DNA of 64,000 bases from Candidatus Gastranaerophilales bacterium (GCA_910587375.1 CAJULR010000022.1:8431-72430), one strand, 5' to 3'; shown: positions 2,881 to 47,785, numbered from the stretch's first letter. The notes: a model not told the origin generated them from the letters alone. Translations and numbers: made by a program.

Positions 2881-3250
2881 AAAGAAAGTCGGAGGATAAT
2901 CGCGCGAGGGTTTAAACCTTTGTGAGGAAAGTCCGGACATCCAAAAAGGCGTGTTGCCTGGGAAAGCCAGGTGCGTGTGAGCGTGAGGACAGTGCCACAG
3001 AAAAGAAGAATGCCCTTCTTTTAAAGGAAGCCTTAGAAGGTTTTCTATATGAAGCTTGGGTGATTGTGCAACGGCGGAGTAAGAGCCCACCGCCTCTTCC
3101 CGTAAGGGCAGAGGGCAAGGTAAACCCCAACAGGATGCAAGTTCGGCTTTGCGGCTATGGTGCCTTTTCCTCCCTTTGGGGCCGCATAAAGGAACGCATT
3201 AGACAGATGATTATCTTGAAACAGAATCCGGCTTATTACCGGCTTTCTTT
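2881..3250 (+). ncRNA. rnpB: RNase P RNA, bacterial type A
   Basis: Conserved blocks are present: GAGGAAAGTCCGGAC, GAGTAAGAGCCCACC, GGTAAACCCCAAC and ACAGAATCCGGCTTAT. A P1 helix forms between aaagaaagtcgg (2881-2892) and ccggctttcttt (3239-3250). The overlapping track ORFs are spurious. Confidence 0.85.
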
Positions 3251-3306
3251 TTATGCGTGCAAAATGTCCGGTTTTCCACAGGGTCTATATGCTGTTTATA
3301 AGGAAA

Positions 3307-4240: not shown

Positions 4241-7204
4241 CTACATAGACGTGCTCTTATATTCAATTATGACAACCCCGTCGCCGCCATAGCCGCCAAG
4301 TCCGCCCACCCCGTCAACAACAGCGCCGCCTCCGCCGCCTCCGCCAAAGACTCCGGGCTTTCCTTGCGCTCCGCTTGCTGCTGCGTTACAATTTCCCGCA
4401 GCGCTCATGTTTCCGCCACAGCCGCCAAGTGGTGGCCCCGCAACTTTCCCGTCTTTGGATTTTATAAACGTCGCAAAGGTGTTGTCGATGTTTTGATAGA
4501 TATATTCCATATATCCGCCGATTCCGCCGCCGATTTCAGAGCCCGCATGCCCGTGCACGGCTGCTCCTTCGTCTGCAGCATAGTTATTATAGTTGTCAGG
4601 AAGCTTTTGAACCCCGCCATGGTCGTCTTTTGTAAGGCCGCTGTTGCCTTTAAGGCCGCCTTTTGCCTTTAAAAGCGTGCCAAAAGAGCTTTCGCCGCCC
4701 GCGCCGTCATAGGCTGTGCCGTTTGCCGCGGTTCCTGTTTTGCCGCCTTTGCCGATTGTGATTGGGATTTCGCTTCCCGGTTTTAAGTTATATAAAGTTG
4801 TAGATTTATATTCGCCGCTGGTGCCGCCCCCGCCGTTGCTGCCGCCATATTCAATGTAAATATAGCCGCTTGCACCTGCAGCGCCCATGCCAAAGGTGTC
4901 CCCTGTGGTTTGTGCGCCTGCTCCGCCGCCTCCGCCTGCGCCGTAGCTGTCGATTGCTGGTGTGGAGCCGTTTTTAACGCTGTTTCCGCCAGTTCCCCCT
5001 GAAACGCTTTCTGCTTTCATATTTTGGATGTTTCCGCCTGCGCCGCCAAAACCTTTGTTTGTAATTGCAGAGGCCAAAATGCCTTCGCCGCCTCCATATC
5101 CGCCTGTAAAGGTTTTGTTTAGCCAGTTTCCGCTTGCGTTTGCAACGTTATCCTGCATAATAAACACGCGTGTTCCAAGCCTTGCGCCGCCAGCAGAGGC
5201 CACATTCGGGTCTGAAGAGTATTGGCCTGCGTTTCCGCCAAGGGCTGTTGCAATGATTGTGCCTGTGGAAGAGCCGCGGCGGATGTAGGTTGCGCCGCCG
5301 TTGTTTCCGTTTTTGCCTGCGCTCACTTGGTTTGCGCCGCCTGCGCCCACTTCAAAATATAGGGTTTCGCCTGGGGTCACGGTGATTTCACCAATGGTCA
5401 TTTGGCCTGCGCCCCCGCCGCCCCCGCCATTTGCCGGCATATTATATGTGCATTTCAAGGCATTTGTCCTTGCCCCCGACTGCCCGTAACAAAGACGTAG
5501 CGCACCAGGCATGCCGTTGTTGGCCGCATTATTTGCATCTTTAGTGTTTTGTGTTCCATCGCCACCGTTACAATAATTGGCGCTTTTCCATATTGTAGTA
5601 GTACCTATAGTACCGGCAGTACTACTATTGCCAGATTTGCCTCCGTACCCTCCGCCTCCACCAACACCTGCAGATGTAGTACCTGTATTTCCGGTCAAAC
5701 CATTACCTATGCCTACAGTTGTATTTAAATATGTCCCACCTCCACCTCCAGCTCCAGCTCCACCTTTTCCACTTCCACCTGCTCCACCCCCTCCGCCATA
5801 TCCGCCCCCACCACCTCCGCCTCCTCCTGCACCGTAATATGTGCTTGAACTATAATGATAGCTTCCACCCCCACCCCCACCCCCACCAATTTGAAATATT
5901 ATAGTACCAGAGGTTCCTGAAGCAGTAGAAATTGATGTTGGGCCTCCGCCACCCCCACCCCCACCTGTTGCAAGACTTCCACTACCATTTGAATATGCAT
6001 TTCTTGCGCCCCCACCTCCGCCTCCACCCCATATTCCACCTCTTCCGCCACTTCCTGCATAACTGCTTGATATAGCATTACTACCTGTTCCCCCATACGA
6101 GATGGCAGTTCCAGTTCCATTTGAACCAGATGTTGCGTTTCCAGTAGAAGATTGCAGTCCTTGGCCACCATTACCTCCATATGTGCCTCCATTTCCACCG
6201 CTGTAGTTGCCACTCCAAGCTCCACCACCTCCACCTCCAGCACTATATCCACCTTCATTGCCACTGTGTTTACCTATTGCGCCCCCACCTCCACCTCCAG
6301 CAACTTTTATATAAACAGTTGATACAGATGAAGTTACTGATGCATTTGCTATATATCCACCTGAGCCTCCACCGCCACCATATGTATCGTACCCTGCACC
6401 ACCCCCACCCCCGCCGCCGCAGGCGGTGACTTTGAGTTCAGCTCCGGCTGTGGCTCCGGGGGTATATTTAACGCTTTCATCTGCCGTTAAGGTCCACTGT
6501 GTCACGCCTGAGGACTTACAGGCGCTGTCCAATTCGGGGACAATCCAGCTTGCATTGTTAGGAATTGTAAAGCTGTGTTCACCCGCGCTTAAAAAATCTT
6601 TACATGTTTCTGCAGCAGTTACCGAGGGAATATCTCCATAAGCTGTACCCACCCCAACGCCGCCGCTGGCGCCGCCTCCGCCGCCACCGACCATATAAAC
6701 GCGAAGTTTTGTAACGCCTTCCGGGACTTTCCAGCTTTGAACAGAGCTTGGGTTTTTAAATTCTAAAACGCCGTGGAATGCGTCCCCGCCTGCGCCTCCG
6801 CCGCCGAGCATGGTCACTTTGGCAGAGTTTACGTCAACCGGAACAAGAAAGGTTCCATCTTCGTTAAAAATCTGAATAACCGCGTCTTTATCGTATTGTG
6901 CGGCGCCAACGCCCGAAACATTGATTGTGGCTTCGTCCATGCGCTTTGTCATGACAGGCGCCAAGGCCGCCATGAGTAACGACGCCACCAATAGAGCCAT
7001 AAGCATTTCCACCAACGAAAACGCAGCATGGGATGATGTTGGGTTAAAACCCAACCTACGGGTTTGAGATTCTGAAACAAGTTCAGAATGACAAAGTCGG
7101 TCCCCGTTCGTTGGCCGAACAGTGTCCATTGGTTGAACGGCCGCAGTGCGGTTTAGAGCTGCAAAACTGCAGCTGTTTTTGAACAACTTTTTAAACATAA
7201 ACAA
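4241..7204 (-). CDS. giant glycine-rich protein with type IV prepilin-like N-terminal cleavage/methylation segment
   Basis: HAA|FSLVEMLMALLVASLLMAALAPVMTK matches the N_methyl-type motif (F-S-L-V-E plus a hydrophobic helix). The rest consists of stacked Gly-rich modules with runs of up to 9 Gly. Modules are bounded by beta-like strands (SWKVPEGVTKLRVYMVGGGGGG ... GYIYIEYGG ... GVVIIEYK). The true start is uncertain: TTG 7204, ATG 7198, or an internal TTG near 7050. Confidence 0.85.
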   Translation of the reverse strand: MFMFKKLFKNSCSFAALNRTAAVQPMDTVRPTNGDRLCHSELVSESQTRRLGFNPTSSHAAFSLVEMLMALLVASLLMAALAPVMTKRMDEATINVSGVGAAQYDKDAVIQIFNEDGTFLVPVDVNSAKVTMLGGGGAGGDAFHGVLEFKNPSSVQSWKVPEGVTKLRVYMVGGGGGGASGGVGVGTAYGDIPSVTAAETCKDFLSAGEHSFTIPNNASWIVPELDSACKSSGVTQWTLTADESVKYTPGATAGAELKVTACGGGGGGGAGYDTYGGGGGSGGYIANASVTSSVSTVYIKVAGGGGGGAIGKHSGNEGGYSAGGGGGGAWSGNYSGGNGGTYGGNGGQGLQSSTGNATSGSNGTGTAISYGGTGSNAISSSYAGSGGRGGIWGGGGGGGARNAYSNGSGSLATGGGGGGGGPTSISTASGTSGTIIFQIGGGGGGGGSYHYSSSTYYGAGGGGGGGGGYGGGGGAGGSGKGGAGAGGGGGTYLNTTVGIGNGLTGNTGTTSAGVGGGGGYGGKSGNSSTAGTIGTTTIWKSANYCNGGDGTQNTKDANNAANNGMPGALRLCYGQSGARTNALKCTYNMPANGGGGGGAGQMTIGEITVTPGETLYFEVGAGGANQVSAGKNGNNGGATYIRRGSSTGTIIATALGGNAGQYSSDPNVASAGGARLGTRVFIMQDNVANASGNWLNKTFTGGYGGGEGILASAITNKGFGGAGGNIQNMKAESVSGGTGGNSVKNGSTPAIDSYGAGGGGGAGAQTTGDTFGMGAAGASGYIYIEYGGSNGGGGTSGEYKSTTLYNLKPGSEIPITIGKGGKTGTAANGTAYDGAGGESSFGTLLKAKGGLKGNSGLTKDDHGGVQKLPDNYNNYAADEGAAVHGHAGSEIGGGIGGYMEYIYQNIDNTFATFIKSKDGKVAGPPLGGCGGNMSAAGNCNAAASGAQGKPGVFGGGGGGGAVVDGVGGLGGYGGDGVVIIEYKSTSM
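7038..7092 (-). repeat. hairpin repeats H2b (gtaggttgggttttaacccaac) and H1 variant (gtcattctgaacttgtttcagaatctc) inside the 5' part of the 987-aa ORF
   Basis: Reverse complement of 7038-7059 and of 7066-7092. The order and spacing relative to the FSLVEM codons match those in the 906-aa gene. Confidence 0.8.
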
Positions 7205-7398
7205 TTTCTCACTTTTTTAAAGTATTAACCGAAAATTTAATCTTTAGAACAACTTTTTAGTAAAATTTTCTACTACACAATATATTATAATAATGTTTAC
7301 ATTAAAAATCAATAAAAACTTGTTGTGTAGGTTATGAACACATGGCCTATTGCATAATAAGCTGTTGTTTGTATTGGGTTCAAGAAAAGTGGAATAAT

Positions 7399-7737
7399 AT
7401 GGACGAGAAAGAAATCAGGAAATTATTGGGCGAAAACATCAGAAGAATCCGCTGGAGTAAGAATATGACGCAGGAAGCGTTTTCAGAAAAAATCGGGATT
7501 GAGCCTTCAAGCCTTTCAAACATTGAAAACGGAAAGAGCCTGCCTTCAACACAAACAATTCTTAACATTCAGCAACAATTTGAAGTTTCTCCCAATGAAA
7601 TTTTTGATTTTGACATTGACTATGTTAAAAGCGCGCAAAACCTTGAAGATGAGATTTTTAGCACTGTTCGGGCCTTTGATGTAGACAGGAAGCGGGTTTT
7701 ATACAAAATTGTGAAGGCAATTGAAGTTACGGCGTAA
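7399..7737 (+). CDS. XRE-family helix-turn-helix transcriptional regulator
   Basis: MDEKEIRKLLGENIRRIRWSKNMTQEAFSEKIGIEPSSLSNIENGK is a classic Cro/CI-type HTH. An internal ATG at 7399 is preferred over the track start at 7342. The gene is divergent from the 987-aa gene. Confidence 0.8.
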   Translation: MDEKEIRKLLGENIRRIRWSKNMTQEAFSEKIGIEPSSLSNIENGKSLPSTQTILNIQQQFEVSPNEIFDFDIDYVKSAQNLEDEIFSTVRAFDVDRKRVLYKIVKAIEVTA

Positions 7738-7819: not shown

Positions 7820-7852
7820 AATCTTGAGATCCTGAATCAAGTTCAGGATGAC
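7820..7852 (-). repeat. hairpin repeat H1, inverted orientation
   Basis: aatcttgagatcctgaatcaagttcaggatgac is the reverse complement of the H1 consensus with one loop change. Confidence 0.8.
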
Positions 7853-7890
7853 GGCTGCACATTGAATGGCCGGATTTACTGTACCAAGTA

Positions 7891-8088
7891 TTAATTTACG
7901 GTGCGGAAAAGCTCTTCCAGGGCGTTATTCAGGCTGTTTATTTTATGCTCGATTTCAATAAGTGCCTGGCCGTAAGGCAGAGTGTCATTGGTTTTTTGCT
8001 CTGTGTTCAGGAGGGCCATTTTAAGAACGTGGGTTGAGTTTCTGATTTCGAGGAGTTTTTCTGTGATTTCGAGGTGTTTTTGGAACAT
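7891..8088 (-). CDS. hypothetical 65-aa helical protein (weak call)
   Basis: Track ORF only. The sequence is heptad-like and rich in Leu/Glu. It lies between inverted H1 copies. No homology recognised. Confidence 0.3.
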   Translation of the reverse strand: MFQKHLEITEKLLEIRNSTHVLKMALLNTEQKTNDTLPYGQALIEIEHKINSLNNALEELFRTVN

Positions 8089-8193
8089 TTGATGATTCCT
8101 TTTTGTTTTACGTTTTTATTTTTGCACAGTTTTTTTGAAATGTATGTAAGCAAAAAGATTACAAGGATGAAGGCGGAGGTTTGGATTGGCCGT

Positions 8194-8334
8194 GTCATCC
8201 TGAACTTGTTTCAGGATCTCGAGATTTTTGCGCTATATCAACAGACCCTGAAATAAATTCAGGGTGACAAAGTCTTTTCAGCGGCGTTGGTTTCTGGATT
8301 GCCGCGGTACGCTGTCGCTTCCCTCGCAATGACG
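8194..8334. repeat. repeat cluster: H1 (8194-8226,+), H1 variant (8245-8268,-), cgtcattgcgag-type copy C (8289-8334,-)
   Basis: Direct sequence matches to the copies at 3624, 4116 and 4043-4200. The overlapping track ORFs (8074-8256, 8195-8551) are built from these repeats. Confidence 0.8.
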
Positions 8335-20505: not shown

Positions 20506-21309
20506 ATGCAAGCGGAGAATTTTACCACAGATACCGTTGAAGAAGTCAATATGTGGCTTAAGGAATATAAAGAAACCGGGGACGAAGCGACAAAGAAAAA
20601 GCTCCGGGATTTAATTGTGCTTGCCTATATGCCGCTTGTAAAAAAGGTTGCGCGCGGTTTTGCAAGGCGCTCCACTGACCCTGTTGAAGATATTACACAA
20701 GTTGGCTCTATGGGCCTCATTAAGGCAATTGATTTGTTTAAATCAGATATAAGTTCAAACTTCAAAACCTATGCCACATATTTAATTACAGGGGAAATTA
20801 GGCACTATTTAAGGGATAAAACTACAATTATAAGGGCGCCAAGGGAAATTAAAGAATTGTCCTATCGTGTACACAAGTTAACGCTTGAATTAACAGAAAG
20901 GCTTGGCTGCCAGCCAACGGACGAACAAATTGCCCAGGCTTTGCAAATGCCCGCCAAAAAAATTGAAGAAGTAATAGAGCTTGAGCGCAGAACAACAACC
21001 GTTTCAATTGATCAAATTATAGGTTCGGAAGAAAACGGCCAGACGCCTTTAATGGATAAAATTGCGGATGAAAAAGATAAAAATCTTATAAACGCTTTTG
21101 AAAATAAAATGATTTTAGAGGACGCTATTAAAAAGCTTTCCTTGGAAGACAGACAAATTATCACCATGAATTTCTTTGAAGGATTAAATCAAAGGGAAAT
21201 TTCAGAACGCTTGAACATTTCTCAAATGCAGGTTTCAAGGAAATTGAAAAAATCTTTAAACAAACTTTTTGAACTCATCACCAAAAAAGGCGTAACACAT
21301 TATGATTGA
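20506..21309 (+). CDS. group-3 sigma-70 family factor (SigF/SigB-like)
   Basis: Region 2 (FKTYATYLITGEIRHYLRD) and region 4.2 (REISERLNISQMQVSRKLKKSL) are present. Size and motifs are typical of the SigB/F/G clade. Confidence 0.9.
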   Translation: MQAENFTTDTVEEVNMWLKEYKETGDEATKKKLRDLIVLAYMPLVKKVARGFARRSTDPVEDITQVGSMGLIKAIDLFKSDISSNFKTYATYLITGEIRHYLRDKTTIIRAPREIKELSYRVHKLTLELTERLGCQPTDEQIAQALQMPAKKIEEVIELERRTTTVSIDQIIGSEENGQTPLMDKIADEKDKNLINAFENKMILEDAIKKLSLEDRQIITMNFFEGLNQREISERLNISQMQVSRKLKKSLNKLFELITKKGVTHYD

Positions 21310-22291
21310 TTTAAATACGGTTTTAGCAATTTTTGTATTCATAACAGGTGCTTGTATTGGAAGTTTCTTAAATGTTGTGGCGCTTCGCGGGCTTTCTGGC
21401 GAAAGCATTGTTTTTCCGCCTTCAAAATGTCCAAAATGCAACAATAAATTAAATTGGTATACAAATATCCCGATTATTTCATATTGTTTTTTAAGGGGGA
21501 AATGCCAGTTTTGTAAAGAGCACATTTCGCTTCAATATCCTGTTGTTGAATTTTTGAATGCGCTTCTTTACCTTTTTTGCTTTTTATCCTTTGGCTGCAC
21601 GGCAAAAACGGTGTTTTTATGTATTTTAATATCGCTTTTTCTTGTAATTGCAATAACCGATTTCAAAGAAAGCGTTGTAATTGACGCTCATACATATGTT
21701 ATTATTGCTCTTGGGCTTATATATAATATTGTTCCTTTTGGTTGCCCTTTTGGCGAAGCAGGAATTGTTCAAAGTGTCCTCGGCATTCTTCTTGGGGCGA
21801 TTTTCTTTGAAGCTATAGCGCGAATTGGCTATCTTTTTGCCGGAACCCGTGCTTTTGGCGAAGGGGACACGTTAATTGCAATGGGTATTGGCGCATTTTT
21901 TGGTTGGAAAACCCTTCTTGTAATCATATTTATGAGCATTATTCTTCAAGCCGTTTTAACGCTTCCAATGCTTTTCCACAAGGCACTTAAAGAAAAACAG
22001 TATAAAAGTGCCGCTGCATACATTGTGCTTGTTTTTTGCGTTGGTTTAGTGTGGGCTTTCAGAGAATTTAATATATATAATATCTTTCCCCTGATTTTAA
22101 TTTTGCTTCTTATGGTCTGTGCTATGCTTCTTTGGGCGCTTTGCACGATTTTAGCTGATATGAAAAATAAAAAGGAAACAAACAATTTTCTATATCTCCC
22201 TTTTGGCCCGGCGCTTGTTCTTGCAGGCCTAATCACAGTGTTTTTCCAAAGCTCAATCATTGCATTTATAAAAAACATTTTCTTTTTGTAA
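21302..22291 (+). CDS. pilD: prepilin peptidase (A24 family, PilD-like)
   Basis: N-terminal CPKC...CQFC zinc motif. Two catalytic Asp contexts (ITDFKES, GEGDTLIAMGIG). Polytopic. The ATG overlaps the sigma factor stop (ATGATTGA). Confidence 0.9.
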   Translation: MIDLNTVLAIFVFITGACIGSFLNVVALRGLSGESIVFPPSKCPKCNNKLNWYTNIPIISYCFLRGKCQFCKEHISLQYPVVEFLNALLYLFCFLSFGCTAKTVFLCILISLFLVIAITDFKESVVIDAHTYVIIALGLIYNIVPFGCPFGEAGIVQSVLGILLGAIFFEAIARIGYLFAGTRAFGEGDTLIAMGIGAFFGWKTLLVIIFMSIILQAVLTLPMLFHKALKEKQYKSAAAYIVLVFCVGLVWAFREFNIYNIFPLILILLLMVCAMLLWALCTILADMKNKKETNNFLYLPFGPALVLAGLITVFFQSSIIAFIKNIFFL

Positions 22292-25131: not shown

Positions 25132-25255
25132 TGTTATTTTCCTTTTCTAAATTTGAATAGTACTTATCTTAATTCTATTCTCACATAAAAATACTCAATA
25201 GCAAGGACTTTCGCTTGAAGCCTCTCTCTATAATATTTATATGGCGATGTAAAAA

Positions 25256-25465
25256 TCAAAAGAAATATTTCATATCCACCCCGAAAAATTCAGCAAGTTT
25301 GTATAAAGTTTTAATGTTTATTGAGTGTTTACCGTTTTCAATGTTTGAAAGGTGGTCCCTTGAAATTTCAACTTCAAAGGCGACTGCCTCTTGAGAGAGT
25401 TCTTTTTCAAGCCTCAAATGCTTTAACCGTCTGCCTATTTCGTTCTGCAATGCCTTAATGCCCAT
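25256..25465 (-). CDS. XRE-family HTH transcriptional regulator (69 aa)
   Basis: IGRRLKHLRLEKELSQEAVAFEVEISRDHLSNIENGK. It shares the LSNIENGK block with the regulator at 7399. Confidence 0.8.
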   Translation of the reverse strand: MGIKALQNEIGRRLKHLRLEKELSQEAVAFEVEISRDHLSNIENGKHSINIKTLYKLAEFFGVDMKYFF

Positions 25466-25470
25466 ATAAT

Positions 25471-25635
25471 TTATTCTTCTCTATCAAGCTCTTGAAGAGC
25501 ATATTCACAGCACTGCTGGACTAAATTATTTAAAGAAACACCCTTATCCTGTGCAACAATTTGCAGCTCCTGCACCAGCTTTGCGGGCAGTCTGAAAGTT
25601 TTATTTATCATTTCAGGTTTTTCAACTTTGAACAT
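25471..25635 (-). CDS. ribbon-helix-helix (CopG/Arc-like) small protein, 54 aa
   Basis: Hand-translated ORF below the track cutoff: MFKVEKPEMINKTFRLPAKLVQELQIVAQDKGVSLNNLVQQCCEYALQELDREE. The pattern is a beta-strand (TFRLP) followed by two helices. It is packed 3-5 nt from both neighbouring genes. Confidence 0.5.
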   Translation of the reverse strand: MFKVEKPEMINKTFRLPAKLVQELQIVAQDKGVSLNNLVQQCCEYALQELDREE

Positions 25636-25984: not shown

Positions 25985-28705
25985 ATGCAAAACAAGCAAA
26001 TCTGTAAGTTGGGCATACTTGCCCAACATCATTCAATGACAGCTGCTCAATCAACGAAAAAAGCAATCAACCAACGTGCAACCGTCACCCTGAACTTGAT
26101 TCAGGGTCTCAACCAACGTGCACCCCGTAGGTTGGGTTTTAACCCAACACCACCCCATGCTGCTTTCTCTCTTGTGGAAATGCTCATGGCCCTTCTTGTG
26201 GCCTCCCTGCTGCTTGCGGCCCTTGCCCCCGTTATGACAAAGAAAATGTCCGAAAATATAAACGTTAACGGCATTTCAGGCGGCGGCCATGCCCCTGCTG
26301 TCTTTAAATGTTGGGACTACGACAGCCCGGAACTCCAGCCTGCGGCGGACGGCAGCAACTATAAAGTCCTCCCCGAAGCCTATCCTGTGGATGACGCCTG
26401 GAATATTAATTTCATCCTTGCTTCAGGCGGCGGCGGAGGCGCCGGTGCCACAATTCCAAACGAAACAAGCCACAGTTTTGACGGCACGGGCGAATTAAAA
26501 ATCGAGCCTGAAATGGATGAAATAGACATTGTTTCAATGATTGGAGGCGGCGCAGGGGGCGGAGGAGGCGCCGCAGTATTTAGCTCTGCCACTTGCACAG
26601 GCGGCCCGTCAGAGGCCAAATGCGAGTGTATGGGCGCAACATACGACTCTGTAAATAAAGTTTGCGTTTCAAATAATTTAGGTTCAAAAAACTTAACAAA
26701 TGCAAAAACAGCATGCCAAAATGTTACACCTCTTAACAAATGGAGTTTGCCAACAACAAGCCAGCTTTCAAACTGGAAGACTAATACGCTGTATTCAACC
26801 CTTGGAATTATAAGCGGGCAGACAGTTTGGAGCCAAACAAGCGGCCAAGGAGCATGCTCTAGTAGCACTTCGACCTATAATTGCTATTACAATGGTGCAT
26901 ATAGAACAGGCTATGCAAGTGAAACAGAATGTTGCAGTGGGAGTAGTTATGGTAGCAAGAAGGGAGCATATGAGCCCAACAATAATTCTTGTGGTGTGTA
27001 TTGCGCTGCAAGAAATGTAACATCTTCCCCTGGAAGTGGCTGGTTTAAAGGCGATGGCCAAACTGCAACAAAATGCGGAGGAACGGGAGGATGTAATTGG
27101 GGTAGTACGGATTATTTTAAATGTGGAACCTGTCCTGATTCTGACACCTGTGCTTCCACTGTTACAACTTCTTGTTCTTCATATTATACAAACTACTACT
27201 TCTACCAACTCACAGGTTCGACCTGGTCCCAAAGTTATGCAACAGATAACACAGGCTCCAGACAGACTTATTGCGTATATAATGACTCCGCAAATGTCAC
27301 AGGTGAAAGCTTCTACTCCCTATCAGGCGGCGGAGGAGGTGGTGCGCCCGCAATTTCAGACAATAATTTCGATTCAAACATTTTAAATACATTTAGAAAA
27401 AGAGTTAAGGAAAACGCCGGCGGCTACCTTGAATTTCAGCGCGGCACAGGCGGAAACGGCGGCGACGCAAGTGCTTCTAAAAACCAAAAAGCAGGAAACG
27501 GCGCAGACGGCGGAGATACCTGTATTATCGTGAAAAACGCGGCACGCGCGTATAAATATAAACTTTGCGTTTCGGGCGGAAACGGCGGCGGGGGCGCAAA
27601 CGCCACCAAAGCAGATTCTTCAACCACAGGCTGGGGCTATGCAGGAGGCGAAAAGAATAACGCAAATGCTTGCTATGTCGTGGATTACACGGCAAATTCC
27701 GCAGGCGTGAAGACAGATTTTGACTGTGCATTAAAAGGAAAAGCCGGAGGGGCAGGCGGCGCCTCAACAAGCAACCCGACAGCGGGCGGAAAAGGCGCTG
27801 CAAGCGTATTAAACAGCACACAAGTTGGCGGAACTGCAGTAAAAGACGGGGTTAGCGCCTCAACTTCAAACTATGGCGCAGGCGGAGGCGGCGGCTCTGC
27901 CTCGAAAACAGGCTATGGCTCTTCAGCAACTCTTGCTTTTGGCAAGGGCGGAAACGGCGCGCCGGGGTATATCAAAATAAACTATAAGAAAAAATTCGCA
28001 GCAGCAGGCGGCGGAGGCGGAGGCGGAGGCTATGTTGCCCATATAAATAATATTACGGTCGGAAAAACCGCAACCTGTGAAATCAAAGTGGGATACGGCG
28101 GGGCAGGAGGCGCTGCCGGGATAAAAGGCTATGACGGCGGAGATTCAAGCGTCACTTGCTCAAATGCGCCAAATGTTACCTACAGAATTACGGGCGGAAA
28201 AGGCGGAGAATTAGGCAGCACAACAGCCGGCGGCCTTGGCGGAGAGGCAGGCACCTATGATGACACAGGGAACATCTTCACAAGGCTTTTCAGCCAGGGA
28301 AATTTCAGACAGGCTGCGGGCCTTGCCGGAAAACAAGGCGGGGCGGGCGATTCCGCAAACTTTAAGGCAAACGTTCGAAGCGCAGGCGGCAGAGGCGGCA
28401 CGGGCGGAACCGGCGAAAAGGGCAAATGCGGCGGTATTTATACAGAAAGCGGCGTTTGCGCCACAGTGCAGGCGGATGAGAATAACGACATAACCGAACC
28501 AAACCAGGACGCCTTGAACGGCGAGGGTTTTGGGGCAGGAGAAATTACAGCGCCCACAAAGGATGGCATAGTTGAGGCCACGCCAAAATACGGAAAAGCA
28601 GGCGCTGGCGGGGGCGGAGGGGCCTGGTATGTAGGCAAAAACCCTGGCCGCGGGGGTGCCGGCCAAGGCGGATATGTCTGCATTTATTGGGACAAGCTGG
28701 AGTAG
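25985..28705 (+). CDS. giant glycine-rich protein with type IV prepilin-like N-terminal segment and a central Cys-rich DUF1566-like insert
   Basis: HAA|FSLVEMLMALLVASLLLAALAPVMTK is nearly identical to the 987-aa protein. Gly-rich modules end in GYIKINYKK and GYVCIYWDK. The central part holds about 18 Cys and a KWSLPTTSQLSNW motif. The true start is uncertain (ATG 25985 with an AAGGA site upstream, or TTG 26132). Confidence 0.85.
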   Translation: MQNKQICKLGILAQHHSMTAAQSTKKAINQRATVTLNLIQGLNQRAPRRLGFNPTPPHAAFSLVEMLMALLVASLLLAALAPVMTKKMSENINVNGISGGGHAPAVFKCWDYDSPELQPAADGSNYKVLPEAYPVDDAWNINFILASGGGGGAGATIPNETSHSFDGTGELKIEPEMDEIDIVSMIGGGAGGGGGAAVFSSATCTGGPSEAKCECMGATYDSVNKVCVSNNLGSKNLTNAKTACQNVTPLNKWSLPTTSQLSNWKTNTLYSTLGIISGQTVWSQTSGQGACSSSTSTYNCYYNGAYRTGYASETECCSGSSYGSKKGAYEPNNNSCGVYCAARNVTSSPGSGWFKGDGQTATKCGGTGGCNWGSTDYFKCGTCPDSDTCASTVTTSCSSYYTNYYFYQLTGSTWSQSYATDNTGSRQTYCVYNDSANVTGESFYSLSGGGGGGAPAISDNNFDSNILNTFRKRVKENAGGYLEFQRGTGGNGGDASASKNQKAGNGADGGDTCIIVKNAARAYKYKLCVSGGNGGGGANATKADSSTTGWGYAGGEKNNANACYVVDYTANSAGVKTDFDCALKGKAGGAGGASTSNPTAGGKGAASVLNSTQVGGTAVKDGVSASTSNYGAGGGGGSASKTGYGSSATLAFGKGGNGAPGYIKINYKKKFAAAGGGGGGGGYVAHINNITVGKTATCEIKVGYGGAGGAAGIKGYDGGDSSVTCSNAPNVTYRITGGKGGELGSTTAGGLGGEAGTYDDTGNIFTRLFSQGNFRQAAGLAGKQGGAGDSANFKANVRSAGGRGGTGGTGEKGKCGGIYTESGVCATVQADENNDITEPNQDALNGEGFGAGEITAPTKDGIVEATPKYGKAGAGGGGGAWYVGKNPGRGGAGQGGYVCIYWDKLE
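26004..26148 (+). repeat. hairpin repeats H2a (26004-26030), H1 variant (26084-26110) and H2b (26127-26148) inside the annotated 5' end of the 906-aa ORF
   Basis: Direct matches to intergenic copies at 3916, 3624/4116/8194 and 45205. Confidence 0.85.
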
Positions 28706-44565: not shown

Positions 44566-45201
44566 GTGATGAATTTATATTTTATAGCAAGTTATATTCA
44601 ACATAGTGGAGATTATTTGGGCGAAAATCCACAGTATGTTTATTTTAACGGTAGTTTGGTTAATTTTACAGGCGCAACTTTGTTATTGACTCTGATTTTC
44701 GGTGTGCTTGGCATTTTAATATGCATTCTTGTTTCAAGTGTGCTACATAAAACACTTATGAATAAAATTACAAAAGAATACCCTTTGGATAAAATCATAT
44801 GCAAGTTCCATCCAACCATTACAACCGCTTTGCCTGCAGAATTTTTTTGTGGTGGTTTTATTGGTGGATATATAATTCCACTACTTCTTTTTAGTGAAAT
44901 AATCCATGTGGATATGGTAACAAGAGAAAATTTAATACTTTATATACTTTTTGGAGCAGCAGCCCTAATGGGCTGCATATTATTTGGAAGCTATACTCTT
45001 GTTTTAACAAATAAAAGAATAATAGGGGTATCTTACGGTGGACTCATCAAAAACACTTTATGCGCTTCTGAAGACATAAAGACTATACAAAAAACTTTTG
45101 GTGGCTGGGAAATTGTACTTAAGAGTGGGGACATTTTACCCTTAAGGTGCCATCCAAAAGCAAAGAAATTTTATGAAAAACTTAAGGATTGGAGTCCGTA
45201 G
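44566..45201 (+). CDS. membrane protein with bacterial PH-like C-terminal region (tentative)
   Basis: Several TM segments. The C-terminus LVLTNKRIIGVSYGG...IKTIQK resembles bPH/YdbT-like motifs. GTG start. Confidence 0.5.
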   Translation: MMNLYFIASYIQHSGDYLGENPQYVYFNGSLVNFTGATLLLTLIFGVLGILICILVSSVLHKTLMNKITKEYPLDKIICKFHPTITTALPAEFFCGGFIGGYIIPLLLFSEIIHVDMVTRENLILYILFGAAALMGCILFGSYTLVLTNKRIIGVSYGGLIKNTLCASEDIKTIQKTFGGWEIVLKSGDILPLRCHPKAKKFYEKLKDWSP

Positions 45202-45204
45202 CTC

Positions 45205-45226
45205 GTAGGTTGGGTTTTAACCCAAC
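45205..45226 (+). repeat. hairpin repeat H2b (gtaggttgggttttaacccaac), intergenic copy
   Basis: Identical to 26127-26148 and to the reverse complement of 7038-7059. It sits between convergent genes. Confidence 0.85.
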
Positions 45227-45272
45227 ACCATTAAACTTGCAACAAAACATCCTGTGATGAAATGCCTGCAAA

Positions 45273-47627
45273 TTACCCTTCAAGCTGGCTTTTCATATTC
45301 CAAATTCCGCAAGGGCAAACCCCTGCGCAAATTCCGCAGCCAATACATTTTTTCTCATCCGAAACGTATGCAAAGCTTGTCGTGCCGTCGGGGTTTGTAA
45401 ATTCAACCCTCTCGATTGCTCCTCTTGGGCAGGATGTAAGGCACATTTTGCAATCTCTGCAGCCGGCGCAGCTTAAACACCTGTTCTTTTCATCTAAAGT
45501 GTCAAGGGCGCAGATTTCACTTTTTCTTAACGTTTTGTAATAAACATCTTTTACTTCGTGCGGTTTTATTTTATTAACGCTCTCTTCCTTGCGGAGCGGC
45601 TTTCCGGTTAATAACCTGTTGATATTCCGCGCAGCGCTTCTGCCTTGGCCTATGCCGTCGCAGAAAAGCCCCTGTCTGATTGAATCTCCGGCAAAGAAAA
45701 CATTCTCCGCTTTTGTGCTTTGGTTAAATTCATTCAACAAAGGCTGGTGCCTTTCGTTTAAAAACCCTTCCGGCACAAAGCTTAAATCGGTTCTATCGCC
45801 GATTGCAATAATTACGCTGTCTGCTTTTAAAAGTCTGCCGTCTGTTAAATATACGCCTTCCTCGGTCACTTTTTCAGTAAAGCAAGGATGCATTATTTTT
45901 GCGCCCAAAGCGCGTGCTGCCTCAATTTCCTTTTCAAAGGCCGCCGGTTTTTGGATGTCAATTGCGGTCACCTGTTTTGCGCCCACTTTGTATGCGCCTA
46001 AAACCACGTCCATTGCTGCGTTTCCGGCCCCTATAACAACAACGTTATTTCCAACAGAGAATTTATTTCCCTTGTTAATTTCTTTTAGAAAATCAAGCCC
46101 TTTTATAATTCTTTCTTTTCCTTCAACAGGCAATACAAAAGGATTTTGGGCGCCGACAGCCACAACAACCGCATCATAATCATCCGCTATGCGTTCAAAT
46201 TCATCCTTGTCGATGTTATAGGATGTGTGAATTTTGCTTTTTGAATCTTCGATTGCACTTTTTAAAATTTCCAATTCAATGTTTAAAATGCCCTGGTTAA
46301 GCCTTTCTTCCGGGATTACCTGTCTTAATTTTCCGCCGATTTCAACATCTTTTTCAAAAATTTCAACCTTATATCCAAGGCGCAATAAATTCCAGGCGCA
46401 AGAGAGCCCTGAAACCCCGCCGCCAATTATTGCAACGGTTTTGTCTTTGGTTTGTGTAAATTCGCCAAGGTCAATGTTTTCAAAAGATTTGACCCCAAGC
46501 TCTGCAACCTTAATTTCTTCATCCACGGCTTTTCTTGAACATGTTTGCATACAAAGGTTTGGGCAAACCTGGCCGCAAACAGACCCCGGGAACGGAGAAT
46601 ATTGATATACAAGGTTTAGAGCCTCTTGAAGCCTTCCTTCCCTTAAAAGCGCCAGGCGTTTTTGGGTTGGAATTGAAACAGGGCAGTCAAATTCACAAGG
46701 GGGCGTTTTTGAATTGTTGTCCCAGGAAGGCACGCGGAGCCTGTTTTCGCCTGTGTTTATAAGGCCTGTAATTTCATTATCAGAACCGAAAAATTCAGAG
46801 AATATCCCGTCTTTTACCCATTTTTGCTTGCGAAATTCGCTTATGGTAAGCTCCGGCACGAATTTTTTCTTATCATAAGGCTTTGCAAGGATTTTTTGCC
46901 ATTTTGAAAAATCCGTCAATTCCTCATAAATTTCAGGTCTTTCAATTTCTGCTAAAAACGTTTTTAAGCCGGAGGTTAAAAAGCTCTTATCTTCTTCATT
47001 TAAGGGGTAAATATCAACATCGGATGTCAACCCTTCAACGTTTCCCCGAACATAAACAACTCCGCCTACCATACCGCAGCAAGAGCGGTTTGAGAGCACT
47101 GATTTTAAATCTTCACATTCATATCCGCAAACAACGGCTTTTCCGCCGCCCATAAATTCAAAACTGAAAGAGCCCGTATTTTTTAACACCCAAAATTCAG
47201 GTTCTTCAAACTTTGGGTCGTGCTTCATTAAGGCGCCGGAGCGGGTTCCGACACGGCCCGCAACATAAATTTTGCCGCCCGCACAACAGTGCGCGGTTGT
47301 ATCCCCGCCATCGCCCAGCACTGTAATTTCAGCCCCTGCATTTAACCAGCCCACATCCGCAGGCGCAGAGCCGTGAACGATGATTTTTGTTCCGACCATC
47401 CCCATAGAACCGACTCTTTGGCCCGGGTTTGTGACATGAAACACAAGCGGTGCACCGTCTTTGGACTTATTTTTTGACCAAAGCGGCCCCCCGATGTCGT
47501 GTTGGCCGGAGGCTAAAATTTTAAATTCGTTAAACCCAAGGTTAATCTTATCGTAGATTAAATCCAGAAGTTCCCTCGTAGAGAGCCTTTTATTATCTTG
47601 TAAACTGTCGATTATGGTTACGTTCAT
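45273..47627 (-). CDS. glutamate synthase component: GXGXG (GltB C-terminal) domain fused to GltD-like NAD(P)H oxidoreductase and a 2x[4Fe-4S] ferredoxin domain
   Basis: The N-terminus carries GQRVGSMG...HGSAPADVGWLNAGAEITVLGDGGDTTA. The middle carries a GltD Fe-S region plus IIGGGVSGLSCA and VIGAGNAAMD dinucleotide folds. The C-terminus carries CLSCAGCRDC...CIGCGICAGVCP. ATG 47627 has AGGAAA upstream. Confidence 0.85.
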   Translation of the reverse strand: MNVTIIDSLQDNKRLSTRELLDLIYDKINLGFNEFKILASGQHDIGGPLWSKNKSKDGAPLVFHVTNPGQRVGSMGMVGTKIIVHGSAPADVGWLNAGAEITVLGDGGDTTAHCCAGGKIYVAGRVGTRSGALMKHDPKFEEPEFWVLKNTGSFSFEFMGGGKAVVCGYECEDLKSVLSNRSCCGMVGGVVYVRGNVEGLTSDVDIYPLNEEDKSFLTSGLKTFLAEIERPEIYEELTDFSKWQKILAKPYDKKKFVPELTISEFRKQKWVKDGIFSEFFGSDNEITGLINTGENRLRVPSWDNNSKTPPCEFDCPVSIPTQKRLALLREGRLQEALNLVYQYSPFPGSVCGQVCPNLCMQTCSRKAVDEEIKVAELGVKSFENIDLGEFTQTKDKTVAIIGGGVSGLSCAWNLLRLGYKVEIFEKDVEIGGKLRQVIPEERLNQGILNIELEILKSAIEDSKSKIHTSYNIDKDEFERIADDYDAVVVAVGAQNPFVLPVEGKERIIKGLDFLKEINKGNKFSVGNNVVVIGAGNAAMDVVLGAYKVGAKQVTAIDIQKPAAFEKEIEAARALGAKIMHPCFTEKVTEEGVYLTDGRLLKADSVIIAIGDRTDLSFVPEGFLNERHQPLLNEFNQSTKAENVFFAGDSIRQGLFCDGIGQGRSAARNINRLLTGKPLRKEESVNKIKPHEVKDVYYKTLRKSEICALDTLDEKNRCLSCAGCRDCKMCLTSCPRGAIERVEFTNPDGTTSFAYVSDEKKCIGCGICAGVCPCGIWNMKSQLEG

Positions 47628-47785
47628 ATATTTTTCCTGTTTCTTTTTTTGGAGTTGTTTTGAGCTGCTGTCGGTCATCCTGTGCCCGTTTGACTACTTT
47701 TGCTAAATCTTTAATTTTGTGCAAAATGTCCGGTTTTTTAGCAGAATCTCAGGATTTTGCAAAATCCTGTTTTTATAACGAAATC

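Follow-up and report, generated by a model that had tools for sequence, protein, structure and literature searches.

In-frame palindromic repeats in the predicted class III leaders of a glycine-rich protein family from a gut Melainabacterium

Here we describe a block of palindromic repeats at the 5' end of a gene for a large glycine-rich protein in a 64,000-nucleotide stretch of DNA from Candidatus Gastranaerophilales bacterium (GCA_910587375.1, CAJULR010000022.1:8431-72430), referred to below as the window. The host is a gut Melainabacterium of the Gastranaerophilales, and the window corresponds to C22:8431-72430 of a 50-contig assembly of 1.98 Mb with 37.8% GC. The gene lies on the minus strand; its open reading frame (ORF) of 987 codons encodes 985 amino acids when counted from ATG 7198, and a 906-residue ORF elsewhere in the window is a paralogue from the same 22-gene family. 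Two repeats, H1 and H2b, stand immediately upstream of a prepilin-type anchor that begins FSLVEM. We favor, with a probability of about 0.7, the reading that the region 7004-7204 holds repetitive extragenic palindromes (REPs), carried as tolerated passengers in a disposable class III leader and spread partly by exchange between paralogues. The leader peptide is probably cut off.

The repeat block and its absence from orthologous leaders

The minus strand of 6900-7300 reads ...GACCGACTTTGTCATTCTGAACTTGTTTCAGAATCTCAAACCCGTAGGTTGGGTTTTAACCCAACATCATCCCATGCTGCGTTTTCGTTGGTGGAAATG, with the translation ...GDRLCHSELVSESQTRRLGFNPTSSHAAFSLVEM. Along this strand the H1 core (7092-7068) is followed by the spacer TCAAAC, by H2b (approximately 7063-7033), and then by CCC-CAT-GCT-GCG and TTT TCG TTG GTG GAA ATG; the codons after H2b encode HAA|FSLVEM, with HAAFSLVEM at 7030-7004. 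An earlier reading of the DNA, the original prediction, had reported the order H1, H2b, HAAFSLVEM in both window genes, and the sequence and translation of both confirm it. Alignment also agrees that the two genes have no similarity upstream of H1. The spacing had been called nearly the same, but the H1-H2b spacer differs by 10 nt, so near-equal spacing does not amount to identity of a block. The H1 stems are ATTCTGAA/TTCAGAAT in the 985-residue gene and CCCTGAA/TTCAGGG in the 906-residue gene, and H1 is read in different frames, as LCHSELVSESQ and VTLNLIQGLNQ, respectively. A 67-nt stretch that starts at H2b is 88% identical in the two genes.

Comparison with positional orthologues in sister species of the genus (designated by G numbers) reveals that the repeat block is an insertion. 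Counted from the conserved ATG, the leader is 19 amino acids long in G005, 20 in G002 and G007, 21 in G004 and G003, 26 in G008, 41 in G010, 48 in G011 and 59 in the present genome; in G012 there is a 72-codon ORF in which no anchor was found. Relative to the G005 leader (MFKKVVQSSRRGAQNRTRA|FSLVEM), the present gene carries a gap-free extra block of 40 codons (7144-7025) between NRT and A|FSLVEM, and the gap in the alignment coincides exactly with the repeats. The positional orthologues of the 906-residue gene likewise have repeat-free leaders, of 9-20 amino acids. Because the orthologues at both loci have short, repeat-free leaders, the repeats must have arrived separately at each.

The insert consists of decayed repeat pieces (AAVQPM, DTV), a long form of H1, and H2b. 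Decomposition with blastn divides it into a decayed stretch, the 51-nt H1 long form (7114-7064), an H1+H2b junction that is 96.7% identical over 61 nt to a paralogue at C22:80897, and an H2b+HAA segment matched at 100% over 38-40 nt by remnants stranded in two further leaders.

Were translation to begin at the in-frame TTG within H2b, the repeats would lie in an untranslated 5' region and the leader would shrink to the 11 residues MGFNPTSSHAA. Five genes do have an in-frame TTG 11 codons before Phe+1, the Shine-Dalgarno (SD) sequence of ATG 7198 is weak, and Di Nocera et al. (2013, PMC3733652) note that numerous REPs assigned to N-termini could actually be extragenic. However, this TTG abuts GTAGG with no spacer and lies inside the hairpin stem, and a start there would leave unexplained why openness is specific to frame 0. 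We rejected it because ATG 7198 and its SD sequence are conserved in 10 species and because most leaders have no canonical start near the cleavage site (for instance ...QGCGKKAA|FSLVEM and ...GLKQCRA|FSLVEM); such a start seems highly improbable. The in-frame TTG to which the original prediction drew attention is real, but it is simply REP sequence (GTAGG-TTG-GG). The same prediction gave the annotated start as TTG 7204 or ATG 7198, with a poor ribosome-binding site. The site at ATG 7198 is indeed weak (GTGAGAAATTGTTTATG), yet this 17-mer is identical in 10 species, and a TTG start is not needed. As the identical 985-residue product is called from ATG 7198 by gene callers on 14 public contigs, the start codon is settled as far as sequence allows.

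Directly upstream of ATG 7198, a single-copy stretch of 147 nt is conserved, at 73-97% identity, in 11 sister species. About 130 nt of this upstream region are identical to G005, against only about 75% identity in the flanking coding DNA. Between the 985-residue gene and the divergent XRE-family helix-turn-helix (HTH) gene, the intergenic region (7205-7340) matches G005 at 97-100% identity and nine further species at 80-92%; the motif TAAAAAGTTGTTC occurs once within it and a second time at the start codon (7198-7175). No conspecific alleles of the leader turned up in a metagenome scan.

H2b and H1 as dispersed palindromic units

As read in the minus-strand locus, H2b is CCGTAGGTTGGGTTTTAACCCAACATCAT, a palindrome with a conserved GTAG tetranucleotide at its 5' foot that folds as a hairpin (-6.4 kcal/mol as DNA, z = -2.8). 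The window contains three exact copies of its core against 0.03 expected. The unit CCGTAGG-TTGGGTT-TTAA-AACCCAA is dispersed through the genome (24 exact copies, 27 near-exact), with 0-6 copies in each sister species. A GTAG tag joined to a hairpin characterizes GTAG-type REPs (Di Nocera et al. 2013, PMC3733652), which together with REP-associated tyrosine transposases (RAYTs) make up REPtrons (Nunvar et al. 2010, PMC2817692; Bertels & Rainey 2011, PMC3116915; Di Nocera et al. 2013, PMC3733652). In G010 a 179-residue Y1_Tnp/RAYT gene (locus L037) is bracketed by inverted H2b copies, and in G006 (L038) an exact H2b stands just upstream of a homologous RAYT gene, on one flank only. In G004 and G002 it is another REP, GTAGGTCAGGCAYYGCCTGAC, that brackets the RAYT genes; family leaders of G005 and G009 also contain this REP in frame, with the reading VGQALPDN. 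Since H2b combines the GTAG tag with a hairpin and flanks RAYT genes in sister species, we assign it as a REP probably served by a RAYT within the genus.

Two further observations concern H2b in the present genome. Beside one copy, at C15:925-1004, there is a weak 12-residue match (YNPVKHNLVQAP, minus strand) that may be a decayed RAYT remnant; within C15:925-1130 this RAYT-like remnant lies between the H2b copy and a second REP-like hairpin (GCAGGCCAGACATTGCCTGATGA). Solo H2b copies had been suggested to mark decayed anchors. This does not hold, as they share only the 24-33-nt REP core, occupy extragenic positions and have no anchor sequence beside them; the copy at 45204-45227, between two convergent ORFs, is an ordinary extragenic REP.

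H1 has the consensus GTCA-YY-CTGAA-CTTGT-TTCAG-RR-TC, which folds as an 8-bp hairpin. There are seven copies in the window against 0.00 expected, about 55 core copies and at least nine long-form copies in the genome, and H1 was found in 12 of the 17 genera sampled across the order. The variable dinucleotides are Watson-Crick complementary in 55 of 56 copies, with five pair types. It begins with CGTC in 18 of 54 copies and with TGTC in the other 36; as only one third carry CGTC, H1 falls only loosely in the CGTC-tagged REP class. On its sequence, it is an order-wide palindromic unit resembling CGTC-type REPs. A companion repeat, R3 (CGTCATTGCGAG...CAATCC), does carry CGTC and fits that class.

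A number of additional repeat contexts were encountered. Inverted R3 copies (GGACACCGTCATTGCGAGCG...GGCAATCCAG) bracket a 97-residue GIY-YIG gene at C22:102208-102625. An H1 copy lies in frame (SCHSELVSESQ) within a 283-codon PyrK/ferredoxin-reductase-like ORF at C35:84501-84525, in the manner of a Rickettsia palindromic element (RPE) inserted in a housekeeping gene. A Pfam search of small ORFs adjoining H1 copies at 7826-8262 gave no match. No Rfam family matched the repeats, the sole match in the window being an RNase P RNA (bacterial class A, 190 bits, 2884-3251). The commonest short repeat of the genome, TTCAAATCCAGGACACAGCGCACAG, has at least 41 copies, resembles a tRNA T-arm and 3' end, and never occurs in family leaders. 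A further repeat, TTTTAGATGAACAACTTTTCGGG, has 15 copies (e.g. C22:101990-102045) and is complementary to the 5' motif AAAAGTTGTTCA. A GC hairpin and a T-run come after it in those copies that were inspected, and at two sister-species loci (L020 and L021) it stands just after the stop codon of a family gene.

Leaders across the gene family

The N-terminal segment FSLVEMLMALLVASLL[LM]AALAPVMTK is invariant across the 22 family genes, whose mature bodies of approximately 850-935 amino acids are Gly-rich and end in a Gly_rich_2 domain. Each of the 12 other species of the genus has 13-38 copies per genome; other genera in this taxonomic family essentially lack such genes. The two window genes belong to the two deepest clades of the mature-body tree.

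Upstream of FSLVEM the anchor frame is open for a median of 100 codons, compared with 15 and 11.5 in the other two frames, and in 20 of 22 genes it is open for longer than either of them; in 17 of 22 no more than 7 codons separate the first ATG from the upstream stop, and an SD-like AGG/GGAG motif precedes this ATG. Four or more repeat families contribute to the leaders, which are varied mosaics: H1 occurs in all three stop-free placements, alongside H2b, R3-type units and others. Although they make up 0.35% of the genome, they hold 24 of the 57 H1 copies and 13 of the 28 H2b copies, where 0.2 and 0.1 would be expected, and only two more repeat copies fall within 500 nt on either side. Nearly all remaining copies are extragenic on a crude ORF map (29/33 for H1, 14/15 for H2b), which leaves the family leader as the only coding DNA that hosts H1 or H2b, apart from the PyrK-like H1 copy. 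The enrichment beside prepilin-type genes that the original prediction called for is therefore borne out, and the strong concentration in family leaders speaks against a random distribution.

The features of a class III signal are present at A|FSLVEMLMALLVASLL, with a small residue at -1, Phe+1, Glu+5 and a hydrophobic stretch. Across 54 distinct leaders the length ranges from 10 to 215 amino acids, and genes with leaders of 170-215 amino acids keep intact bodies of 894-920. Residue -1 is Ala in 48 of these leaders, Gly in five and Ser in one, while -2 and -3 are free to vary, which fits selection of a peptidase site at a fixed position whatever lies upstream. A short basic leader (roughly 6-30 amino acids) is seen in the orthologues of 19-21 amino acids and not in the present leader of 59. 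In addition to the prepilin peptidase of the window (Table 1), the genome has five T2SSE matches over the cut-off (ATPases) and two loci for T2SSF platform proteins.

We propose that an ancestral leader of about 20 residues, starting at ATG 7198, gained in the present species a 120-nt in-frame block just upstream of Ala(-1)|Phe(+1), built of dispersed palindromic repeats, namely H2b, H1 and decayed pieces of other units. The block would be transcribed and translated as part of the pre-protein, and the A24 prepilin peptidase (21302-22291) would cut before FSLVEM and discard it; because it would be discarded at cleavage, its only constraint would be to remain stop-free and in frame. The same scenario would extend to the whole 22-member family, in which the leader would be the single permissive stretch between a constrained promoter and 5' untranslated region (UTR) and the mature anchor. 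Once repeats were present, pieces would be swapped between paralogous leaders to give mosaics. What the sequences show is which repeats these are, that they form an insertion when set against the orthologues, that they favor one frame, and that they are kept out of other coding DNA; from this we infer translation through the repeats, cleavage at Ala|Phe, neutrality of the block and exchange between paralogues.

Several observations weigh against this proposal. No RAYT gene was found in the present assembly, which is 90% complete, either by Pfam search or by tblastn with three sister RAYTs. Two hidden Markov models (HMMs) score the anchor slightly under threshold (N_methyl, PF07963, 18.1 bits against a cut-off of 21.2; TIGR02532, 15.6 against 16.3), and the residue at -1 is Ala, not Gly. 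To our knowledge, leaders of 59-215 amino acids far exceed any characterized prepilin leader, and their efficient processing is not assured. The repeat density of leaders is about 30 times that of intergenic DNA, and all 13 leader H2b copies use just one of three possible stop-free placements, read RRLGFNPT; tolerance alone explains neither this roughly 30-fold excess nor the single placement. Lastly, a hairpin is retained even in leaders free of repeats, which hints that it may be wanted and not merely tolerated.

This hairpin follows AAAGTTGTTCA in the ancestral part of the leader (Table 1), and all nine orthologues have one at the matching position with different stems (GCTGCA, GCTCC, CTCCCG), including one compensatory pair, G-C to C-G, in three of eight sequences; in G007, H1 occupies the position. 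The leader RNA of the 985-residue gene folds better than shuffled sequence (z = -3.2). Such features would suit co-opted regulatory hairpins, with REPs as interchangeable suppliers of hairpins that, within the first 60-650 nt of coding mRNA, set the expression of each paralogue through mRNA stability, ribosome pausing or coupling to membrane targeting. The density of leader repeats and the covariation of the H1 stem point the same way. Against this, leader content, length and hairpin number vary enormously across orthologues and paralogues, several family genes have plain short leaders, and the fold z-scores of the short orthologous leaders, negative in nine of nine, are mostly weak and only some significant; the H1 covariation is equal in extragenic copies and may reflect palindromic master copies. 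We consider regulation by co-opted hairpins unlikely. Similarly unlikely, in our estimation, is that the leaders are selected landing pads, in which hairpins would be required, REP or CGTC units would be recruited, exchanged and stacked to tune an adhesin-like repertoire of 13-38 genes, and the anchor and repeats would double as recombination patches reshuffling promoters, leaders and bodies.

The distribution of leader pieces among paralogues bears on how the repeats spread. The junction H2b-(C/T)CCATGC(T/G)GC-FSLVEM is common to five genes and two stranded remnants, and the junction types overall are H2b-HAA, H1-KQCxA, KKAA and unique ones. Inheritance of leader type by gene duplication was rejected, as the junction types do not cluster on the body tree, where 8 changes compare with a mean of 7.8 after shuffling. 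Leader H2b copies vary on the left, where at least nine types of flank occur, and their right flanks fall in few classes. In five genes from three species a stranded A-F-S-(L/P) half-site is followed by a CGTC-type unit and then by the real A|FSLVEM; synonymous differences between the stranded copy and the local anchor speak against a recent target-site duplication. Nor is TTCTCCCTC (the FSL codons) supported as a preferred target of H1-type insertion with duplication, since extragenic H1 copies have no such flank. Leader segments thus appear, from these sequence patterns, to have been exchanged between paralogues on top of primary REP insertion.

Such exchange retains part of the original prediction, in which H1, H2b and the prepilin anchor were duplicated or mobilized as a block. 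Multi-module pieces are indeed shared, as the junctions of H2b with FSLVEM in five genes and of H1 with H2b in the C22:80897 paralogue testify, and junction types independent of the body tree are expected if 5' pieces move. The three parts do not, however, behave as one fixed unit or as one that moves by itself: the window genes differ in H1 subtype, frame and spacing, the left flanks of leader H2b copies are too diverse, extragenic H2b copies share only the REP itself, H2b alone flanks RAYT genes in sister species, and orthologues at both loci lack the block. As a self-mobile unit the block is largely refuted, and we regard it as very unlikely.

The bodies and 5' regions of family genes seem to have had different histories, as the G005 positional orthologue, with the same promoter, is only 65% identical over the first 250 mature residues, whereas a paralogue of the same genome (C36:119833) is 72% identical to the body of the 985-residue gene. 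The two window genes are among nine of the 22 family genes that have their own divergent XRE-type HTH gene directly upstream (7342-7737 and 25253-25471 in the window), which suggests gene-by-gene regulation.

These histories would accord with a recombination scaffold, in which the invariant anchor and shared repeats would act as patches of homology, across which promoters, leaders and bodies of about 900 amino acids recombine among 13-38 paralogues per genome as a means of surface variation. The family is genus-restricted and expanded, its promoter regions and bodies differ in their closest relatives as described, leader types are scattered on the body tree, and the synonymous differences of the stranded half-sites (there A-F-S-L) point to ectopic exchange. 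Nevertheless, the identical 985-residue product in 14 public contigs gives no direct sign of ongoing switching, the anchor codons differ synonymously between paralogues, which implies that homogenization is infrequent, and a promoter for each gene, with an XRE gene of its own in nine of 22, is an ill fit to an expression-site model. We think such a scaffold unlikely. Taking regulation and recombination jointly, a role for the leader hairpins and repeats keeps a small share of our confidence because of the unexplained density, the single H2b placement, the retained ancestral hairpin and the fold of the leader RNA.

Table 1. Features of the window (positions counted from its first nucleotide).
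Feature	Position	Strand	Description
Mature Gly-rich body, 985-residue gene	4241..7021	-	C-terminal Gly_rich_2, PF21722, E = 3e-18
Mature N-terminus FSLVEMLMALLVASLLMAALAPVMTKRM	6938..7021	-	Phe+1, Glu+5, hydrophobic helix; prepilin-type anchor invariant in 22 paralogues
Leader of 985-residue gene, 59 codons	7022..7198	-	ATG 7198 to Ala -1 at 7024-7022; cleavage predicted
In-frame insert, 120 nt, 40 codons	7025..7144	-	Missing from G005, G004, G003 and G002 orthologues; immediately before Ala|Phe site
H2b, CCCGTAGG-TTGGGTT-TTAA-AACCCAA-CATCAT	7033..7063	-	7-bp stem, 4-nt loop; read as RRLGFNPTSS
H1 long form, AACGGGGACCGACTTT-GTCATTCTGAACTTGTTTCAGAATC-TCAA	7064..7114	-	Core hairpin GTCATTCTGAACTTGTTTCAGAATC at 7068-7092, 8-bp stem, 5-nt loop; read NGDRLCHSELVSESQ
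Ancestral leader part MFKKLFKNSCSFAALNRT	7145..7198	-	Orthologous to 19-21-residue sister leaders by alignment with G005 and the orthologue series
Perfect hairpin AGCTGCA-GTTT-TGCAGCT	7157..7174	-	7-bp stem, after AAAGTTGTTCA; in ancestral leader part
Sigma-70-like promoter TTGATT-17-TATAAT	7284..7312	-	Upstream of ATG 7198, in intergenic region 97-100% identical to G005
XRE-family HTH gene	7342..7737	+	Divergent from 985-residue gene
Prepilin peptidase	21302..22291	+	A24_N_bact + Peptidase_A24; presumed leader-removing enzyme
Leader of 906-residue paralogue, 60 codons	25985..26164	+	H2a, H1 of CC/GG subtype (26084-26108), H2b (26126-26149); Phe+1 at 26165
Solo H2b	45204..45227	+	Between convergent ORFs 44566-45201 (+) and 45273-47678 (-); only 24-nt core matches; no anchor remnant

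Relation to known systems and significance

In its 5' GTAG tag, short hairpin and dozens of dispersed copies, which outside the leaders lie mostly between unidirectional or convergent genes, H2b resembles GTAG-type REPs, and it resembles REPtrons in bracketing a single-copy Y1 transposase gene in a sister species. Unlike REPs, nearly half of its copies are in coding DNA, all in the leaders of one gene family. It also departs from REPtrons in its low copy number (27), in the absence of a RAYT from the present assembly, and in that the leader copies show no REPIN doublets, all 13 being singletons in one orientation and one frame. The leader mosaics combine palindromic units and linker motifs in variable order and orientation as bacterial interspersed mosaic elements (BIMEs) do, but BIMEs are extragenic and the family mosaics are bound to one reading frame.

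RPEs, reportedly described by Ogata et al. in 2000, were compared with the leader repeats in their behavior as in-frame palindromic inserts. As in RPEs and intragenic REPs, palindromic repeats would here be read in frame as 10-80 extra residues and tolerated where the protein is indifferent, and N-terminal cases are known. The present case differs in that the host site is a predicted cleavable class III leader, that it recurs in 22 paralogues and across the genus, and that several repeat families are stacked to 215 codons at about 30 times the intergenic density. Intragenic, translated GTAG and CGTC REPs, N-terminal ones included, have already been documented (Di Nocera et al. 2013, PMC3733652).

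Type IV pilins and pseudopilins have class III signals on which PilD-type A24 peptidases act; the anchor has in common with these signals a small residue at -1, Phe+1, Glu+5, a hydrophobic helix and machinery in the genome. It differs from them in its Ala at -1, its HMM scores under threshold and a leader of 59 amino acids (up to 215 in the family) against roughly 6-30, and the mature protein, of about 900 amino acids and Gly-rich, is unlike a type IV pilin.

In-frame REPs in a predicted prepilin leader are thus an extreme, family-wide case of a known phenomenon. What is unusual is the scale and the specificity: every member of a genus-specific family is affected, the stacks reach 215 codons, and the host is a predicted class III leader. 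REPs are extragenic by definition, and the few copies met within genes have passed for scattered accidents. In this family of giant, pilin-anchored surface proteins they are systematic, in frame, and located in a pre-protein segment that would be discarded. For annotation, the long upstream extension of the ORF would be real coding sequence from ATG 7198, and not a mis-called start or a riboswitch-like 5' UTR. The family offers a natural experiment in how much arbitrary sequence, up to 215 residues, a class III leader carries, in where selfish palindromes persist in a compact 2-Mb genome, and in how repeats spread among paralogues. If the leaders were landing pads after all, the REP/RAYT system would be a working part of a surface-variation mechanism.

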